DNA of 64,000 bases from Gammaproteobacteria bacterium (GCA_965221955.1 CBDCTA010000029.1:96001-160000), one strand, 5' to 3'. Counted from the first letter of the stretch, positions 34,965 through 42,090 are shown. The notes: generated by a model from the letters alone, not told the origin. Numbers and translations: made by a program.

Positions 34965-35455
34965 ATGAAACGTGTATTAACTTTAGTGCGCCATGCTAAG
35001 TCAAGCTGGAACGATGCGAACTTGAGCGATTTCGAGCGGCCTTTAAATAGCCGAGGGTTAAAAAATGCGCCAGAGATGGGTAAGCGCCTTGCTGATGAAA
35101 ATTATTTGGTGGACAGTATTATTTCAAGCCCTGCTGTGAGAGCGATTACCACTGCAGAATTTATTGCAAGTGAAATTGAATTTAATATTCAAAAGTTGAT
35201 CGTAATGAAAAAATTTATGAAGCAAGTTTGAATACATTAATAGACCTGGTTGCAGGTTTGGACGATAATTTACATCGTGTGATGTTAGTTGGTCATAATC
35301 CAGGCTTTACGGTTTTATGCAACTATCTATCTAACGCTGAAATAGATAATATGCCGACCTGCGCAATTGCACAGATTCAGTTTGATATAAATAGTTGGGA
35401 ATCCATAACAGAACATTCAGGTAAGCTTTTGGATTTTGATTATCCAAAAAAATAA
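34965..35455 (+). pseudogene. sixA: SixA-like histidine phosphatase split by a 1-bp frameshift (possibly a sequencing error)
   Basis: RHAKS..RPLN in 34959..35231 and MLVGHNPG in 35228..35455; adding one A to the A run near 35191 joins them. Confidence 0.8.
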
Positions 35456-35485
35456 CAATAAGTATGAATAAGAAAATTATAAAAA

Positions 35486-36220
35486 ATGCCTCGACCTACC
35501 AAAGCAAAATTTACTGAATTTAATTTACCTGCTGGTCGCATTATTGCAAAGAAGTATGAGGTGCTTTCTAAGCTAGGTGGCGGGTTTGAAGGTGAAGTGT
35601 ATAAAATACGTGAAATTAGCACAGGGATTGAGCGCGCAGCCAAATTATTTTATCCCAATCGCAATGAAAAGGATCGAGCGGTAAAGTTTAATGCACAAAA
35701 GCTGCATAAACTCAGACAATGTCCAATACTGATTCAGTACCACACAAAAGAGAATTTTGTTTTTAAAAGAACTCCAGTTACGGTTCTAATATCAGAATAT
35801 GTTGAGGGACAACTGCTTTCTGAATTTATTAAAAGCTTTCCTGGTAAACGTCTTACCCCTTATCAAGCATTGCATTTGCTCTATGCATTAACTCAAGGTA
35901 TCGAGTGCATACATAGCCTGAATGAATATCACGGAGATTTGCATTCCGATAATGTCATCGTCAATAAATTTGGCTTAGAATTTGATTTGAAATTAGTTGA
36001 TTTGTTTTCTGCAAAAGAACCTAAACATGAAAGCCGTAGATTTGATATTTTAACTTTGATTCAAGTGTTTCATGAGTCATTAGGTGGAGCTAAGCACTAT
36101 GCAAAGCATCCTGATCCAATCAAGTATATTTGCTGTGGCCTAAAATCAAATTTAATTTTAAAAAAATTTAAAACTGCAGGCCAATTACGAAGACATATTG
36201 AAAGCATGGAATGGTCATGA
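35486..36220 (+). CDS. Compact Ser/Thr protein kinase-like protein
   Basis: LGGGFEGEVY, AAK and HGDLHSDN. Confidence 0.8.
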   Translation: MPRPTKAKFTEFNLPAGRIIAKKYEVLSKLGGGFEGEVYKIREISTGIERAAKLFYPNRNEKDRAVKFNAQKLHKLRQCPILIQYHTKENFVFKRTPVTVLISEYVEGQLLSEFIKSFPGKRLTPYQALHLLYALTQGIECIHSLNEYHGDLHSDNVIVNKFGLEFDLKLVDLFSAKEPKHESRRFDILTLIQVFHESLGGAKHYAKHPDPIKYICCGLKSNLILKKFKTAGQLRRHIESMEWS

Positions 36221-36255
36221 ATTTTGCGAAAAAATTAGAAATACCTAATTTCAAT

Positions 36256-36377
36256 ATGTCCGCTTACGACCCAAAGTGTGAGTCCATGGATGGGCGAATA
36301 TGAGGTGCAACAAGGATGTTGCTTCAGATTCAATATTTCTTTTATTAGAATGTCCGCTTACGACCCAAAGCGGACAT
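36256..36377 (+). repeat. Array start: truncated B (36256-36276), leader L2 (36279-36330), full B (36350-36377)
   Basis: ATGTCCGCTTACGACCCAAAG; TGAGTCCATGGATGGGCGAATATGAGGTGCAACAAGGATGTTGC; ATGTCCGCTTACGACCCAAAGCGGACAT. Confidence 0.88.
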
Positions 36378-36461
36378 TAAGTCTTACAATATTTCATGTT
36401 ATTACATAGTAATATTTTCTAACGCTTTAACCTTCTTGCTTCTCCATCTACTTCATTTATA

Positions 36462-36475
36462 TTGATGTATATCAA
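36462..36475 (+). promoter_or_regulatory. Canonical FNR box
   Basis: TTGATGTATATCAA, a perfect TTGAT-N4-ATCAA, with a TATAAG -10-like hexamer at class II spacing. Confidence 0.75.
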
Positions 36476-36547
36476 TAGACATCAGGTTTAACGTGTTATA
36501 AGAATTTAAGCATCAAGGGATAAGGGGATTGTTTATGGAGAGCAACT

Positions 36548-36807
36548 ATGAAACTCAATCCAATTATTCTGGGAATCTCGAGCGCAATCACAACCGCAAT
36601 TTTATGGGTCATCTGTAGTTTACTCGTTGTCACCTTACCAGGGTTCATGATGAAATGACAGCAGGGATGATGCATAGTGACATTACTACAATGAATTTCA
36701 CACTAACTTGGCCAGGGTTTATTTGGGGTCTTGTAGCTTGGGTTGTATGCGCAGGTATAGCTGGTTGGTTAATTGCAATAATTTATAATCGATTGTTACC
36801 AAAATAA
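36548..36807 (+). pseudogene. DUF5676-like small membrane protein with 1-bp frameshift
   Basis: MKLNPIILG..LWVICSLLV..PGFMMK, then MTAGMMH..LTWPGFIWGL..YNRL in a shifted frame; one A missing at ~36655. Confidence 0.65.
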
Positions 36808-36899
36808 CGATGTGATCAAGAGATTGTAAATCTGGATGTCTAGTTTTATTTTATGTGTTTGATGTTAATTTCAAATTTAGTATTAAGGAGAATACTGTA

Positions 36900-37037
36900 A
36901 TGCACGGTGATGGTGGATTTTTCACGCATTGGGGATTTGGGTTTGGTCATTGGTTTCTTGGTGTTTTGCTATGGTTTATTGTCATACTTGTAGTTGTACT
37001 TTTAATAAGAACGGTATTTAAGACTGATAAACATTAA
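36900..37037 (+). CDS. Small single-TM protein (45 aa)
   Basis: AAGGAG RBS; MHGDGGFFTHWGFGFGHWFLGVLLWF. Confidence 0.6.
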   Translation: MHGDGGFFTHWGFGFGHWFLGVLLWFIVILVVVLLIRTVFKTDKH

Positions 37038-37059
37038 GTAGGCTATCAAAAACATACTC

Positions 37060-37575
37060 ATGAGAATCCCTGAGAAAAATGTAAATAAAACTGCATGGTA
37101 TTTACGTCCATTTTTTTGGAATCAACGTAGAAAATATGGGCAAGTGCTAACCCCAGCGCTGCTTTGGGCAAGGGTGCCTAAGCTTTTTATGGCAGTAGCC
37201 ATTTTATATGGTGAATTGCTATAAAAAACAGTCCATTAGACCCTGTCTGCGTTCTTTGGTAATTCACAAATAAATTGGTGTCACTGTTGAGCTTAATTCC
37301 GCCACATTAGCAGAAGCGAGCTGGTTCGAAAATATTCAGAAGCCATTGGAAAGAAAGTGAACTGTTTAATGACAAAGAAAAATGGTAAATGGAATAATGT
37401 AGAAGCGATTACATATTCATCAACAATAGTGCTTGAATTAACGAAACCGTCTGCTAGAGTTCTTCAGTGAAGATGCGGTAGTGGAGCTCACTGGCTCATC
37501 GCCTTTCAAAGTCTATCTAGTAAATTTACATTCGCTCAGGGGTTTTGTAAGCTTCCTCAAGAAAAAGTTCGGTAA
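37060..37575 (+). pseudogene. Carboxymuconolactone decarboxylase/AhpD-like gene remnant
   Basis: MRIPEK..WYLRPFFWNQRRKYGQVL.PALLWARVP, then fragments SQINWC, EDAVVELT and QGFC in shifting frames. Confidence 0.7.
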
Positions 37576-37618
37576 ATAAAAGCTGCAAATAACTAGTTCA
37601 CTTCATAGATTAGATTGA

Positions 37619-37712
37619 ATGTCCGCTATTGCCGAAAACTCAAACTTAAAGGGGAATTTAAGGTTGGATCTCAAAATAACTAATATGACTGCTTACGACC
37701 CAAAGCGGGGAT
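37619..37712 (+). repeat. Degenerate A-spacer-B junction
   Basis: ATGTCCGCTATTGCCGAAA..AGGTTGGATCTCAA..ATGACTGCTTACGACCCAAAGCGGGGAT. Confidence 0.85.
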
Positions 37713-37959
37713 TTAATTTCTTAATTTCTCAAGTTTTCCTGTTCTTGTTTATTCATACGATTTTAATGGAAATAAACTTGGTGATACATGTGAAAAAGCT
37801 ATTAGGATGAATTAAATTCTGGGCTTCTCAGCTTCCTAGTTATGAGAACTATCTTGGTAGAGCCATCAGGCATGTATTTTTTAACTATGAGGGCCTTGAA
37901 ACATAGCTAGATACGATTGTATAAAAACGTAATTAAGCGCCAAGATTTAACATTTTATT

Positions 37960-38247
37960 TTGATTCATTTGGCTGCCCTACCACATTTTGAAAGCTATAA
38001 AATTTCCGAGAGAATAAATAGGAAAGTTTATGATAGTCAGGAGCAAACCGATAACTTGAACAGAGATATACTTGATATGTTAGCTCCCGTAAGACGTTGG
38101 AGTATATGGGTAGAAGAAAAAGATAAAACAGATTTAATTTTATTTAGATATGAAGGTATGTGGAGACTTTTTTTGAGAACAAAAATTACATATCCACAAA
38201 TGGAAAAATCAAGGGAGCTATCGCTGGTAGTAGGTTTAGACCTTTAA
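37960..38247 (+). CDS. Hypothetical cargo ORF or remnant
   Basis: 95-aa ORF ending 19 bp before an A palindrome; the upstream part looks disrupted. Confidence 0.35.
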   Translation: MIHLAALPHFESYKISERINRKVYDSQEQTDNLNRDILDMLAPVRRWSIWVEEKDKTDLILFRYEGMWRLFLRTKITYPQMEKSRELSLVVGLDL

Positions 38248-38266
38248 TATGTAACAACATAATGAA

Positions 38267-38367
38267 ATGTCCGCTATTGGCCGTAAGCGGACAAAAAAAG
38301 GGACGCAATGTGTTGGAATCAATAAATTACAAACATAAAATGTCTGCTAACGACCCAAAGCGGACAT
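38267..38367 (+). repeat. 101-bp A-spacer-B junction with IHF consensus
   Basis: A 38267-38294; AATCAATAAATTA (WATCAA-N4-TTR) 38317-38329; B 38340-38367. Confidence 0.92.
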
Positions 38368-38389
38368 TAGGTATATTTAAAAAATTATC

Positions 38390-38725
38390 ATGAGCATCTT
38401 AATAGTACGTATAACCTGCTTTTTTTGGGCGATTGCTTGTTTAGTAATTTTAGTTTTATCTTACGGGTCAACTCCAGTCACTAAACTTTCTACTGAAATG
38501 GCAATGACTGCAATTGAAGAAAAGTATATAAATTTTGCATCTATGTCCGATAAACAGCGAGAAAATTATAATTTTCTTTCAAATTGGGTGCGTGGGAATG
38601 ATAAAGGTTTTAAAAATTCCTCAATGTTTCGTCATAAACTTATCTTGATTGTGACTCTAGGTTCATTATTGATTTGCTTTTATATTGCTTTTTTCATGCG
38701 AAATTCAAACAAAGCTAATAATTAA
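38390..38725 (+). CDS. Two-TM hypothetical protein (cassette cargo)
   Basis: 111 aa; starts 22 bp after B and ends 15 bp before A. Confidence 0.7.
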   Translation: MSILIVRITCFFWAIACLVILVLSYGSTPVTKLSTEMAMTAIEEKYINFASMSDKQRENYNFLSNWVRGNDKGFKNSSMFRHKLILIVTLGSLLICFYIAFFMRNSNKANN

Positions 38726-38740
38726 AATTAATTGAATTAG

Positions 38741-38841
38741 ATGTCCGCTATTGGCCGAAAGCAGTCATAAATTGAGACGAACGAGGTTGGATTCAATGCT
38801 TTATACGTTCAAAATGTCAGCTAACGACACAAAGCGGACAT
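38741..38841 (+). repeat. 101-bp A-spacer-B junction
   Basis: ATGTCCGCTATTGGCCGAAAGCAGTCAT..AGGTTGGATTCAATGCTTTA..ATGTCAGCTAACGACACAAAGCGGACAT. Confidence 0.92.
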
Positions 38842-38872
38842 TGACGTTTTTCGACATAAGATTTTAATCTTT

Positions 38873-39421
38873 GTGTTAATGAGCAAGATTATTTCTATAT
38901 GTATTTTGATTTACCTGCTTACAGGTTGCACAGTACCGTGGTCATTTGATGCATCTGATAAACCATATGCTAAAAATATGACAAATCAATGTTATCAATT
39001 AACTAATGATGCTTTTCTAATACAACCGTGTGAACCGCACCCCTCCATAGCAGATTCAACATTGATAGATCCAGAAGGTTTTGAGCCACACTGCACTCCA
39101 CCAAATATAAGTGTTTATAATAAAGACCCTAGTAAGTGGAATAATATTTGTGATGAGTCTAAACGAACTTTATGGACAATAGGTTGCCGTTACAGAGTTT
39201 CAATGGCTCTTCCTAAGGGCTCAAAATTTAAAGTTACTAGAATAATTAATATGACGGGTGGAGGTCCTAGATTTTGGAAAGTAAGTGCTACCTTAGTAAA
39301 TTCTAAAGATGAATTTGAAATTTTTGGTTCATGGCTAAATCCAAGATTTTTTGCCTCAATTAATCCCAAACAAAATTTAGAAATTCTTAATAAATATGCT
39401 AAAGCCTGTACAAACTACTGA
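38873..39421 (+). CDS. Cys-rich putative lipoprotein (cassette cargo)
   Basis: Lipobox LLTGC; stop codon overlaps the next A palindrome. Confidence 0.75.
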   Translation: MLMSKIISICILIYLLTGCTVPWSFDASDKPYAKNMTNQCYQLTNDAFLIQPCEPHPSIADSTLIDPEGFEPHCTPPNISVYNKDPSKWNNICDESKRTLWTIGCRYRVSMALPKGSKFKVTRIINMTGGGPRFWKVSATLVNSKDEFEIFGSWLNPRFFASINPKQNLEILNKYAKACTNY

Positions 39422-39518
39422 TCGCTATTGACCGAAAGCGGACATAAAATAGGATCAAATAGGTTGGATTCAATCTCATACAAGAGGAAAATGTCTGCTT
39501 ACGACCCAAAGCGGACAT
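39418..39518 (+). repeat. 101-bp A-spacer-B junction
   Basis: CTGATCGCTATTGACCGAAAGCGGACAT..AGGTTGGATTCAAT..ATGTCTGCTTACGACCCAAAGCGGACAT. Confidence 0.92.
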
Positions 39519-39629
39519 TCAAATTAGCTAAAATTTGCTCTTTGTCAATTTTAAGAGACAATATGATCCTATTATTATAGTTATGTGGCCTTCAATTTTG
39601 AGCGGCCGATAACTAAAGGAGGTGCTAAG

Positions 39630-40012
39630 ATGAAACTTAAAATCATTTTGGTCATCAACGCTATTGTCGTAGCAATATTTGGAATTGCATTAGTGCTTAT
39701 ACCAGCACAGCTTCTGTCCTTGTATGGCATCACGGTGGACACCCATTAAAATATATGGCGCAGCTATTTGGGGCTGCTCTTATTGGATTTGCCGTGTTGA
39801 CCTGGTCGGCCAGAAACTCCAGTGATTCCGGTGCGCGTAGGGCAATTATCCTTGCATTATTTGTGACCGCTGCAATCGGCTGTATTGTGGCTGTACTTGG
39901 TGCACTTGCAGGATTTATGAATCCTCTTAGCTGGTCAACAGTAGCAATTTACTTGTTTTTTGCAGCAGTCTTTGGATATTTTCAATTTGCTCGACCAACA
40001 ACTTCGTCGTGA
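39630..40012 (+). pseudogene. Four-TM membrane protein with 1-bp frameshift (cassette cargo)
   Basis: AAGGAGG RBS, MKLKIILVINAIVVAIFG..LYGITVDT, then MAQLFGAALIG; one C missing in the C run near 39743. Confidence 0.65.
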
Positions 40013-40105
40013 TGAGATACTCAGTTTAAAAAGCACAGAGCTACAATAACATCAATTACGAAAAATGAGGTCCTAGCGGATGCTTAAATGACACGTATCA
40101 ATTAG

Positions 40106-40133
40106 GCATCCGCTATTGGCCGAATAGCAGACA
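40106..40133 (+). repeat. Type A palindrome (degenerate)
   Basis: GCATCCGCTATTGGCCGAATAGCAGACA. Confidence 0.8.
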
Positions 40134-40389
40134 AAATAGCATAATATTTTCGATTTATGTTTGCGGATTGTGGGGGCAGAGCATCCCACGAATTTGTACT
40201 TGCTTTTCTGCGTTTCCTCAATCCATGCGATCTCAACGCACTCATATTATTTGCTTTGGGTAATGTTCTGTTTCAGTCCCTCGAAATCGAACTTAGTTCC
40301 GTTTACCCCACGCACCGACTACTCTAGTAAGACATTTAAAATTGCAAAAGGTTTAGTGTATTTATTTTCTTTGAGTACAGTAATATTGC

Positions 40390-40417
40390 ATGTCCGCTTA
40401 TGGCCGAAAGCGAACCT
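40390..40417 (+). repeat. Type A palindrome, array end
   Basis: ATGTCCGCTTATGGCCGAAAGCGAACCT. Confidence 0.8.
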
Positions 40418-40437
40418 TTTGATCCTGAGTTATATAG

Positions 40438-40776
40438 CTATCCAGTGCTCCACGATCTTGGTCTTTTCATTCCTGCAATTTTGCAAGCTTGTTTGACGTA
40501 CCCATATGGAAATAATTTAAATAACTGTTTTTTTGCTTGCTTTCCATAACTAAGCTCATCAGAAATATATTTAATTACGTAGCGAGAGTCTGGAGCGGTT
40601 AAGTGATCATTGTAATAATCACGCATGAATTGAATGATTTTCCAATGCTCAGGTGAAAGATCTAGCTCTTCCTTGCTAGCAAGAACTCTAGCGTATGCCT
40701 CATTCCACTCTTCTGGGTCAATTAGATAGCCTTCATTATCAATGTTAATAGGCATTGAGGATATCTGCTGAGACAT
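40438..40776 (-). CDS. TusE/DsrC family protein lacking the C-terminal Cys
   Basis: DNEGYLIDPEEWNE, EHWKII and LFPYG..QACKIAGMKRPRSWSTG. Confidence 0.9.
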   Translation of the reverse strand: MSQQISSMPINIDNEGYLIDPEEWNEAYARVLASKEELDLSPEHWKIIQFMRDYYNDHLTAPDSRYVIKYISDELSYGKQAKKQLFKLFPYGYVKQACKIAGMKRPRSWSTG

Positions 40777-40814
40777 TTGAAATGCCTTTGGCTGGGATTA
40801 GTTAGAATTTAAAG

Positions 40815-40931
40815 TTATAAACTGATAAGAAAATTTACAAATACAGTAATAGCAGCCGCTATAATAAATACTACCCAAAATGCGGTTACTATTGGATTTG
40901 TGTGGCTATTTTCTAAATGTTTTCCACTCAT
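40815..40931 (-). CDS. Unannotated 38-aa single-TM small protein
   Basis: AAGGA RBS; MSGKHLENSHTNPIVTAFWVVFIIAAAITVFVNFLISL; fills the gap between co-oriented genes. Confidence 0.55.
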   Translation of the reverse strand: MSGKHLENSHTNPIVTAFWVVFIIAAAITVFVNFLISL

Positions 40932-40962
40932 GATTAATCCTTTTCAATTCAAATTGAGTTAA

Positions 40963-41331
40963 TTACCTGCAGAGCACATCATCACGATGCTTTTCGATAG
41001 CATCGATAACTTTTGTGGTCTGATTTTTACCAATATTAAGGTCAGATAAGGACTGTTTTACACATTCCATCATGGCATCAACATGTTCATCATTAAGTCC
41101 TTCTTCTACTGCCCCTTTGTGCGCTCGACGCATATCTTTTCCCAAATATAAAGACGGGCCGCCAAAAATGTAGGTTAAAAAAGCAGTCATTTTTCTTTGT
41201 TGTGATTCAACATCTGTTTTTTCAAAAAAATCCTTAATGCGGTCATCATTTAATATATGCACATATAAATAATATGCTGCCTTTTCAACAGTTTCTTTCC
41301 CGCCAAGTTCATCATAAAGGGTTTGATCCAT
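40963..41331 (-). CDS. Group I truncated hemoglobin
   Basis: TLYDELGG, FGGP..Y.GKDMRRAH. Confidence 0.9.
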   Translation of the reverse strand: MDQTLYDELGGKETVEKAAYYLYVHILNDDRIKDFFEKTDVESQQRKMTAFLTYIFGGPSLYLGKDMRRAHKGAVEEGLNDEHVDAMMECVKQSLSDLNIGKNQTTKVIDAIEKHRDDVLCR

Positions 41332-41415
41332 TATTCTTTTCTTTCTATAAAGTTAAATTAATAAGTCGGATTTTTGAGTTAACTTCTATCTAAAATAGAC
41401 ATAGATTGAATAGAA

Positions 41416-42090
41416 TTAAAACTTCCTACCTATGCTTACAAAAAATACCCATGGGTCGATATCGATATCCACGTCTCTGCGTACGCCATTGGTTTTCAAT
41501 GTAGCATCGGCATCAATGTCTACATACCAAAGTGCAGTGTTAAAAAACCAATTTTCATTTATAGAAATATCTGTGCCGATTTGGGCAGCTAGCCCCCAAG
41601 AGTCATCAATATCAAGTTTTGTGTCACCGCCAAGCGCGGTTTCGAGCGAGGAAGAAACGTCTTCATCTGGAAAATGTGTGTAATTAAACCCTGCTCCAAT
41701 ATAAGGATGGAATTTTGCGGATCCATTAAAATGATACTGTAGTGATAAAGTAGGTGGAAACACATCTACATCTGCAATTTTTCCTAATGCGCTTAGACCA
41801 TCCTTGCCTTTTAAATCATGTGTAGATGGGGTAACACCTAAAAGTTCAATTGCAAATCTCGAAGTCAGCATATAACCGATTGTGAAACCTAATGTGACGT
41901 CATTATCAACACCCACTTCGGTGTTAGGTATTCCATCCACATCATTACTACTGTCGTTGGGCTCTATAAATGCGGGGCCGATTCTGGCAAACCAAGTGCC
42001 TTGATCGTAGGCATAACTTGCTGGTGTGATAGAAATGAAAATTATTAACAATAAAAATTTATAATTATTTAAGTGCGCTATTTGGATCAT
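41416..42090 (-). CDS. ompW: OmpW/AlkL family outer membrane protein
   Basis: PPTLSLQYHF, PYIGAGFNYT, DSWGLAAQIG and IDPWV. Confidence 0.92.
   Translation of the reverse strand: MIQIAHLNNYKFLLLIIFISITPASYAYDQGTWFARIGPAFIEPNDSSNDVDGIPNTEVGVDNDVTLGFTIGYMLTSRFAIELLGVTPSTHDLKGKDGLSALGKIADVDVFPPTLSLQYHFNGSAKFHPYIGAGFNYTHFPDEDVSSSLETALGGDTKLDIDDSWGLAAQIGTDISINENWFFNTALWYVDIDADATLKTNGVRRDVDIDIDPWVFFVSIGRKF

Follow-up and report, generated by a model that had tools for sequence, protein, structure and literature searches.

Integrons are the textbook case of bacteria stockpiling and shuffling single genes. The only other well-known system of site-flanked cassettes, to our knowledge, is that of the pdif modules, which are confined to Acinetobacter plasmids. 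Here we describe a chromosomal locus that resembles both, an array of genes lying between short palindromic sites on a 64,000-nt stretch of DNA from a gammaproteobacterial assembly (GCA_965221955.1, contig CBDCTA010000029.1, positions 96001–160000), the whole of which is referred to below as the window. A preliminary description, made from the sequence alone, had proposed that positions 36256–40417 hold a new kind of gene-cassette array whose content is shuffled. The array consists of five to six cassettes, all in one orientation, each bounded by a palindrome termed B on its 5′ side and a second palindrome, A, on its 3′ side. Sites of the same family recur across the genome with the anatomy and regularity of a cassette system; cassettes turn over between strains and species with breakpoints at the sites, and single cassettes move horizontally. 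We interpret the locus as a chromosomal cassette array with the logic of integrons and pdif modules, built on new sites, in which exchange would be driven by an enzyme; the chances of this interpretation being correct seem to us about even. No description of such arrays was found in the literature covered; subscription journals and supplements lay outside that coverage, and an earlier description is therefore possible.

Results

Sites and cassettes of the window array

The window corresponds to positions 96001–160000 of contig C29 in the assembly here labelled G000 (2.69 Mb in 29 contigs, 38.6% G+C, 96.6% complete and 4.3% contaminated). Reading of positions 35800–41000, together with a repeat finder, gave ten copies of a 28- to 29-nt palindrome in a single orientation, reproducing the coordinates and common orientation of the preliminary description. 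B sites start at 36350, 37685, 38340, 38814 and 39491, with a further B′ copy at 36256, and the well-formed A copies start at 38267, 38741, 39418 and 40390. The A sites are where they had been placed; however, the copy at 37619 has merely the left arm and part of the loop, and that at 40106 is degenerate. Both B and A are 28-bp palindromes with an 11-6-11 layout and common arms of 9–11 bp, ATGTCCGCT.. and ..AGCGGACAT. Their centres differ, being CGACCC in B and TGGCCG in A, and the ten bases between the arms are (A/T)ACGACCCAA in B and ATTGGCCG(A/T)A in A. The features of the array are as follows, where ORF stands for open reading frame and T for a module described further below.

36256–36276, plus strand: B′ half-site, the first 21 nt of the B palindrome, broken by the T module
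36278–36337, plus strand: T module, left terminal inverted repeat of the array, with hairpins hp1 and hp2 (nhmmer match at C29:132278–132337, E 6e-18)
36350–36377, plus strand: B site 1, start of the variable array; allelic contig C10 departs directly after it
36378–37618, plus strand: cassette 1, several short membrane-protein ORFs
37619–37646, plus strand: truncated A site, left arm and part of the loop (family D4 match 76%; outside the limit of ≤6 mismatches)
37685–37712, plus strand: B site 2, 5 mismatches
37960–38247, plus strand: cassette 2 ORF, 95 aa, no Pfam family
38267–38368, plus strand: junction of A (38267–38294), a 45-nt spacer and B (38340–38367)
38390–38725, plus strand: cassette 3 ORF, 111 aa, two membrane helices predicted by eye, no Pfam family
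38741–38841, plus strand: junction of A (38741–38768), spacer and B (38814–38841)
38873–39421, plus strand: cassette 4 ORF, 182 aa, lipoprotein-like N-terminus, no Pfam family
39418–39518, plus strand: junction of A (39418–39445), spacer and B (39491–39518)
39585–40012, plus strand: cassette 5, a membrane-protein gene split into two ORFs
40106–40133, plus strand: degenerate A site, end of cassette 5 (family D4 match 88%; fails the limit of ≤6 mismatches)
40134–40389, plus strand: remnant cassette, no convincing ORF, 82% identity to a stretch of genome G004
40390–40417, plus strand: terminal A site

At three of the window junctions the distance from the start of A to the start of B is 73 nt (A, 45 nt, B), and it is 66 nt between A(37619) and B(37685), where the A copy is truncated. 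The cassette 3 ORF starts 22 nt past B and stops 15 nt ahead of A, while the cassette 4 ORF starts 31–37 nt past B and has its TGA stop within the next A, in agreement with the distances first reported (22–37 bp after B and 0–15 bp before A). A copy of the cassette 3 ORF with 67% identity is present in genome G009, with an A site on both sides.

Five of the seven cargo ORFs of the window that were tested have no Pfam family, and one is a fragment of DUF5676. The latter belongs to a split gene within cassette 1 (36548–36807). Contigs assembled from sequencing runs of other samples have one additional C behind 36650 (run X1) and one behind 39741 (run X5). By our own reading, the first would unite the two frames of the DUF5676 gene, and the second those of the membrane-protein gene in cassette 5. 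Because the extra C is present at each place in contigs of other samples, the two frameshifts of the window may be assembly errors rather than pseudogenes. A search of positions 35000–42000 against Rfam at E≤1 gave no known RNA family. The array is followed on its 3′ side by a DsrC/TusE-like gene on the minus strand (40438–40776; Pfam DsrC, 117 bits), and beyond this by an ORF, also on the minus strand (40963–41331), that has the look of a truncated globin by eye.

Genome-wide rules of the sites

A scan of G000 for both site types, at ≤6 mismatches, found 168 sites in about 20 clusters distributed over many contigs, and bears out the site pattern for which the preliminary description had called for a genome-wide scan. 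The arm pattern by itself, at ≤2 mismatches, occurs 117 times, compared with 0 for a reversed-pattern control; this abundance is far from chance. Neighbouring sites are co-oriented in 116 of 123 pairs, rather than having the random orientation that would have spoken against a cassette system. When segments of cargo are sorted by the sites that bound them, 58 are B-A, 14 A-A, 10 B-B and 2 A-B. The 30 A-to-B junctions have spacings of 73 nt (12 cases), 83 (11), 72 (2), 82 (2), 59 (2) and 71 (1); the alternation of A and B that had been proposed from the window is thus found genome-wide with 73 nt as its commonest spacing, although 83 is also frequent. Compared by eye, A matches B at 11 of 16 positions when it is taken as an inverted B, and at 12 of 16 when it is taken as a second type in the same orientation.

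The position of the cargo follows the sites closely. The longest ORF of a segment has the orientation of the sites in 74 of 84 cases and the opposite one in 9 (there was no ORF in the remaining segment). Among the 74 co-oriented ORFs, 52 start 6–55 nt past B, and for 56 of them A lies between −4 and +32 nt from the stop codon. Peptidases, hydrolases, transporters, GNAT enzymes and globins are among the cargo of G000, together with numerous small proteins that are membrane-located or unknown. The statement that cargoes are unrelated to each other, made for the window, extends to the genome: about 90 cargo ORFs contain just 9 small paralogue groups and are otherwise almost all unrelated.

Turnover and transfer of cassettes

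G000 holds two haplotypes of several regions, with flanks that are 97–99.7% identical (C10 and C29:123675–138671; C14 and C23; C11 and both C26 and C5). They are probably two co-assembled strains, in keeping with the 4.3% contamination of the assembly. On the allelic contig C10, the flanks of the window array are 98.7% and 99.7% identical to those on C29, whereas between the first B and the last A there are four cassettes, as against five to six in the window, and none is held in common. The two sequences part directly after B. Between C14 and C23 the side bearing xerD is common to both, and cassettes have been gained or lost exactly at A sites. Cargo of fixed order and content among relatives, which would not have been compatible with the shuffling first proposed, is contradicted by these comparisons, and turnover of cassettes is borne out between strains and, as described next, between species.

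Cassette 5 of the window (39502–40133) is 94% identical to a cassette of G004, compared with 75–81% for core genes and flanks of the two species. Homology sets in at position 12 of B, on the border of its six central bases, and stops where A does. The copy in G004 has other neighbours, and is followed by the same A and then by an inverted T. Two further cassettes are common to arrays within G000 (C5 and C11; C5 and C26), and there homology ends at the outer edges of the sites at four of four boundaries. The unit that is exchanged is B-cargo-A.

The T module at the ends of arrays

Many arrays are preceded by a conserved segment of about 57 nt, located upstream of the first B, which we call T. 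It consists of GTGAGC..., a first hairpin, GAATATGAG, a second hairpin and CAGATT. A reverse-complement T follows the last A of many arrays, and behind it there is often the right-hand portion of an A site. A T profile has 74 matches in G000 at E≤10, of which 35 are full-length. The copies stand in pairs, inverted relative to each other, at the two ends of elements that measure 180 bp to 12.6 kb, comprising arrays and single-cassette elements, and G000 also contains cargo-free T-T elements of 180–205 bp.

Both hairpins of T are kept by compensatory changes. In the 35 full-length copies, 161 and 162 of 175 cells are paired, compared with maxima of 150 and 147 in 1000 shuffles, a control that is generous because the copies are related. 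At one pair, for instance, 17 copies have A-T and another 17 have T-A. Target-site duplications were found neither at five T elements read by eye nor at a T-T element of G000 whose place is empty in G002 and G004.

In the window, T lies inside a B site, after base 21. What had been described as a B′-L-B arrangement was correctly positioned, but is actually the left copy of the 57-nt terminal inverted repeat within a B site. A contig from run X5, a different marine sample, has an intact B without T at the place corresponding to 36276. The window array has the left T copy; the inverted T expected after the terminal A is missing, with a degenerate trace in the allelic contig C10.

T starts within the stop codon of one kinase-like gene, with a Pkinase domain, in several species of the genus (36218–36220 in the window; TGG TGA GC...; loci L126–L133). 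Another gene, beside a T-T element on contig C22, likewise ends in the start of T. The locus behind the kinase gene has differing contents in G014, G011, G010 and G001; no match to a site or to T was found there in G006 and G008, nor adjacent to the kinase gene in G003 and G013. Because T is present at the same stop codon in several species, the platform is old while its contents change.

The spacer between A and B

The consensus upstream of 73 B sites is aGGTTGGAATcAAt ... tTTAAA followed by ATG. A TTGG[AGT][AT] hexamer is present at −27 in 35 of the 73, placed 17 nt ahead of a conserved [TC]AAAAT ending in the two bases with which B begins. In the window, the spacer of the 38267–38368 junction contains TTGGAA-17-TAAAAT at 38313–38341, and a related TTCAGA-17-TAGAAT at 36323–36351 ends inside B site 1. 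The spacer thus looks like a sigma-70-like promoter with a −10 element that overlaps the first bases of B, in which case each cassette would be expressed on its own. The argument is drawn from the position-specific motif upstream of B, and not from a generic promoter scan of the window, which found two such motifs and no enrichment (16 compared with 18.5 in shuffles).

The A-spacer-B unit is about 101 nt long, and as single-stranded DNA the 38267 junction folds into a long imperfect hairpin with internal mismatches (−22.3 kcal/mol, z −5.45). Among 47 distinct junctions, the arms on the cargo side are conserved and those on the spacer side are variable.

Distribution of the sites

Sites occur throughout the genus (14 of 14 genomes) and in 20 of the family's 24 genomes, with counts of 94, 42 and 150 in the complete relatives G010, G014 and G019, and of 49 in G001; G016–G018 and G023, from the same family, are site-free. 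Of 401 sampled Pseudomonadota, 76 gave one match or more, mostly between 1 and 8; about twenty of these 76 also match the reversed control once or twice, and single matches are accordingly unsafe. The exact 22-nt core of B was found in at least 114 stretches of a species collection, at loci of 35–71% G+C, whereas about 0.5 would be expected from base frequencies. The loci listed include Lysobacter, Noviluteimonas, Frateuria, Dyella, Sphingomonas, Sphingomicrobium, Caulobacter, Kiloniella, Onishia, Nitrospinaceae and a Nitrospirota assembly; one further record of 40% G+C is labelled Mycobacterium and may be mis-binned. At least two palindromes are present in 60 of the 114 loci listed. The site family spans several orders and classes of Pseudomonadota and reaches assemblies of Nitrospinaceae.

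Whole-genome counts at ≤3 mismatches are 38 in Lysobacter soli, 66 in Noviluteimonas caseinilytica, 39 in Dyella, 48 in a Sphingomonadales assembly and 5 in a Nitrospinaceae assembly, with 0, 0, 0, 1 and 1 matches, respectively, to reversed controls. In L. soli, two ORFs are preceded by B at 18 and 9 nt and followed, 32 and 2 nt past their stops, by A. Successive ORFs of two Dyella isolates have a single palindrome between them, and 11 of 11 segments are filled to 73–102% by a co-oriented ORF. The A-spacer-B junction of the window is therefore not universal. In Dyella, conservation around the palindrome is limited to 28 bp, and the site is a perfect hairpin. One Dyella array extends over about 10 kb with at least 17 sites, and is flanked by genes for a peptidase, a sensor phosphatase, a pilin and an ankyrin protein. 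Six of ten cargo ORFs in these other taxa have no Pfam family. The orientation of ORFs relative to sites in high-G+C loci, as judged by a simple ORF rule, was too noisy and was not used. Because the exact B core occurs so much more often than expected over such a range of G+C, and because the same palindrome-ORF-palindrome layout is seen in Dyella and L. soli, the site is under selection.

In Sphingomonadales assemblies (L025, L026, L051, L076), sites with a third kind of loop (TTCCACCC..) and sites of the B type alternate at a spacing of 35–74 nt, with up to 15 sites in 6 kb. Plasmid and phage collections gave weak matches of 30–50 nt with nothing annotated, in a Synechococcus phage and in Pantoea plasmids (for the B region, NZ_CP045723.1, NZ_CP020945.2, NZ_CP082293.1 and NZ_CP028350.1).

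Search for a recombinase

The preliminary description placed the gene for a recombinase outside the window. There is none in the 64-kb window, as it had said; however, none was found among the tested families in the whole genome or in complete relatives. It had also suggested looking for a tyrosine recombinase or an HUH/RAYT gene that co-occurs with the sites, and none emerged other than XerC and XerD. The transposase associated with repetitive extragenic palindromes (REP), RAYT (PF01797), is present in 1 of 14 genomes of the genus and has no match in G010, G014, G019, L. soli or N. caseinilytica, and across five site-rich genomes the best match to the integron integrase (TIGR02249) scores 83 bits against a cut-off of 265.

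Two indirect routes to an enzyme were also without success. When ORFs of the 114 B-core loci listed were clustered, no family reached beyond 13 loci, and sensors, regulators and metabolic proteins made up the leading families. None of the nine small paralogue groups among the roughly 90 cargo ORFs of G000 is recombinase-like.

G000 has a canonical dif-like site on contig C4, on the minus strand about 89.6 kb from one end, with 4 mismatches to the textbook consensus. By eye, its arms have no resemblance to those of the palindromes, as the preliminary description had claimed for dif arms in general. One large array lies about 0.7 kb from xerD.

At one locus of G019 (L141, G019:C1:1244000–1262000), three divergent tyrosine recombinases of 366–379 aa, which are not IntI, are interleaved with palindrome arrays, and one of them ends 8 nt after an A site.

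Discussion

Although the enzyme is hypothetical, a simple mechanism can be proposed for the exchange of cassettes. A cassette consists of a B site, a short leader, one ORF and an A site; in arrays of the G000 type, cassettes are joined by spacers of 45 or 55 nt, and many arrays are closed at both ends by inverted T copies. We infer that a recombinase pairs B with B and A with A, because the sites have two centre types, an 11-6-11 layout and a breakpoint that borders the six central bases, all of which would fit such a like-with-like rule; an 11-6-11 layout is also found in core sites of tyrosine recombinases such as dif. The unlike centres would prevent recombination between A and B. A single exchange between direct repeats would then result in excision or insertion of a cassette, while a double exchange, at B and at A, would result in a cassette swap, as in recombinase-mediated cassette exchange. 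It is conceivable, if somewhat doubtful, that the arrays are a second independent invention of an integron-like system, extending across classes of Pseudomonadota to Nitrospinota, with two incompatible palindrome types, an unrecognised enzyme family or a core host protein as its recombinase, cassettes that carry their own promoters, and platforms closed by inverted repeats.

Several results weigh against enzyme-driven exchange. Breakpoints located at 28-bp repeats are expected from homologous recombination as well. Among contigs of four public sequencing runs there was no circular or excised form, and the repeat joints in them are short-sided (22–39 nt), come from other arrays and are uninterpretable. 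At the variable arm positions of the 47 junctions, no covariation favours either a self-hairpin or pairing of A with B. The genome of G000 has no matches to PF01797, PF00078, PF01548, PF03050, PF04754, PF01609 or PF00665, the families tested being Y1 transposase/RAYT, reverse transcriptase, the insertion sequence (IS) families IS110 and IS66, Rpn, the IS4/IS5 DDE transposases and rve. Its tyrosine recombinases (PF00589) are XerD beside dsbC, in two alleles, XerC beside hslV, and one P4-like integrase located 7 kb from the nearest site. The complete genome G010, which has 94 sites, holds just two high-scoring Xer-like recombinases and one 411-aa integrase. In N. caseinilytica, with 66 sites, three matches to integron-integrase profiles all fall far under the cut-off, and no recombinase is found in the flanks of the 10-kb Dyella array. 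A large serine recombinase was considered and rejected as the enzyme: it adjoins DUF2924-like and phage terminase genes, and no such enzyme was found in G014 (42 sites) or G001 (49 sites). In G000 such a gene forms part of a prophage-like block (L119, G000:C26:84941–88399) that encodes a 540-aa serine recombinase, a 162-aa protein and the large subunit of a terminase. Serine-recombinase matches of similar size occur in G010, G011 and G019.

An explanation without a dedicated recombinase is that the palindromes are selfish or structural repeats of the kind known as REP or bacterial interspersed mosaic elements (BIMEs), that T is a miniature inverted-repeat transposable element (MITE), and that both have piled up in flexible accessory islands, differences between strains being due to homologous recombination and whole-array replacement after DNA uptake. 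The sites are indeed extragenic palindromes, some of them in doublets that may be inverted, as in REP doublets forming hairpins (REPINs); the Sphingomonadales palindromes stand in close tandem, 35–74 nt apart, like REP clusters; one of the cargo-free T-T elements of 180–205 bp is absent at the same place in G002 and G004; and no recombinase was found. On the other hand, REP families are normally lineage-specific, unlike a core that is identical across classes, and arms of 9–11 bp are short for RecA-dependent exchange. Nor would such repeats be expected to be concentrated in about 20 clusters instead of scattered over intergenic space, to keep a strict orientation and distance to the starts and stops of ORFs, or to occur as two types in fixed places, B ahead of the gene and A behind it, and RAYT is found in one of 14 genomes of the genus, and neither in the three complete relatives nor in the two cultured site-rich genomes. 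We regard this explanation as unlikely. A different view, which we find improbable, is that the sites are mainly regulatory, B being an operator at which a conserved repressor silences acquired genes and A a 3′ hairpin that terminates the transcript or makes it more stable, with the module spreading alongside genes as a mobile promoter; this would be compatible with either model of recombination. The conserved TTGGAA-17-TAAAAT with its −10 over the first bases of B and the closeness of A to the stop codon (−4 to +32 nt in 56 of 74 co-oriented ORFs) point in this direction, and a 9-10-9 inverted repeat would suit a dimeric protein, as in the binding of HrcA to the controlling inverted repeat of chaperone expression (CIRCE). 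Yet the loop or centre is conserved too, in two fixed types, which is needless for a dimeric factor that reads the arms only; in Dyella one palindrome serves both positions with no promoter motif conserved around it; and array turnover with breakpoints at the sites is left unexplained by regulation alone. The palindrome may nevertheless be an operator or an RNA hairpin, in addition to being a recombination site or instead of it.

The host recombinases XerC and XerD are the only ones found in every site-rich genome examined, and a large array lies about 0.7 kb from xerD. The 28-bp sites, with the 11-6-11 layout of dif, could accordingly be unusual Xer sites, and the arrays chromosomal analogues of pdif modules. 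We nonetheless consider this very improbable, given that the arms of the canonical dif on C4 have nothing obvious in common with those of the palindromes, and that the two arms of a site are alike in sequence, a feature that points to a single kind of protein and not to XerC together with XerD; as there are about 25 platforms in the 2.7 Mb, it is unsurprising that one of them lies near xerD. It is exceedingly improbable, in our view, that the arrays are divergent clusters of attC sites from an integron that has lost its integrase (CALIN, for cluster of attC sites lacking integron integrases). CALINs lack IntI by definition, and a missing IntI by itself is no argument against one; moreover, the cassettes are co-oriented, small and mostly of unknown function, and the A-spacer-B unit of about 101 nt is an imperfect hairpin with outer arms that are better conserved than the inner ones. 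The ends of the units speak against it, for these begin AATGTCCGCT and end AGCGGACATT on either strand, with no AAC/GTT pair; the absence of RYYYAAC ... GTTRRRY ends, already noted in the preliminary description, can be read directly from the sequence. The best score for an integron integrase is also far from the cut-off in the five site-rich genomes, each cassette appears to have its own promoter, and the site in Dyella is a bare perfect hairpin of 28 bp, below the 57–141 bp range of attC lengths.

Whichever explanation is correct, the arrays have implications for how gene pools are organized. If an enzyme is behind them, as in the cassette-exchange mechanism that we favour, that enzyme would be a novel tool for recombination, and the arrays would form a large reservoir of mobile genes that escapes current integron-based surveys. 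If there is no enzyme, the arrays would show that 28-bp repeats alone can organise hypervariable gene islands. Since isolates of Dyella, Lysobacter and Noviluteimonas carry arrays, either answer is testable.

Finally, we compare the arrays with known systems of repeats and cassettes. Like REP, BIMEs and the REPIN-RAYT system, they involve short palindromes outside genes that lie directly behind stop codons and in some cases form doublets, perhaps inverted, around a conserved spacer; unlike REPIN-RAYT, they have no co-occurrence with RAYT, are clustered at accessory genes, use two site types at fixed places and share a core across classes. In MITEs with passengers, such as mobile insertion cassettes (MICs) and Tn3-derived inverted-repeat miniature elements (TIMEs), terminal inverted repeats bound passengers in the absence of a transposase, as T does for elements of 180 bp to 12.6 kb. 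In contrast to MICs and TIMEs, no target-site duplication was seen for T, PF01609, PF00665, PF03050, PF01548 and PF01797 were not found in G000, the repeats are structured hairpins with compensatory changes, and the passengers are themselves modular. The neisserial intergenic mosaic elements (NIMEs) with their dRS3 repeats are similar in that short repeats with terminal palindromes, which are targets of insertion, alternate with variable intergenic units. NIME units, however, contain no genes, and neither the sequence of dRS3 nor its IS110-type enzyme is related to what is described here; no IS110 family gene was found in G000.

The closest parallels are with integrons and pdif modules. Integrons and CALINs also have co-oriented small genes of unknown function between structured sites, hypervariable content and single cassettes that occur across species, and the A-spacer-B junction resembles the sites of integrons in being an imperfect hairpin with better-conserved outer arms. 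The differences are that there are no AAC/GTT core triplets here and no integron integrase was found, that a genome has many small platforms instead of one, that cassettes apparently have promoters of their own, and that in some lineages the site is a bare 28-bp palindrome. The pdif modules of Acinetobacter likewise consist of genes flanked by 28-bp sites of 11-6-11 layout and occur in differing contexts. The two sites of a pdif pair are inverted relative to each other, an arrangement that the sequences of B and A match about as well as a common orientation. The arms of the present sites, however, are alike and not dif-like, and the arrays are chromosomal, have up to about 20 cassettes and are distributed over many orders. 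Because IntI, the AAC/GTT cores and dif-like arms were all looked for and not found, the system is a member of neither group, although it works like both; nor does it belong to REPIN-RAYT or to the MITE cassettes. In marine Gammaproteobacteria and in cultured Xanthomonadales from soil, the same logic is present with tens of copies of an unrelated site in each genome.

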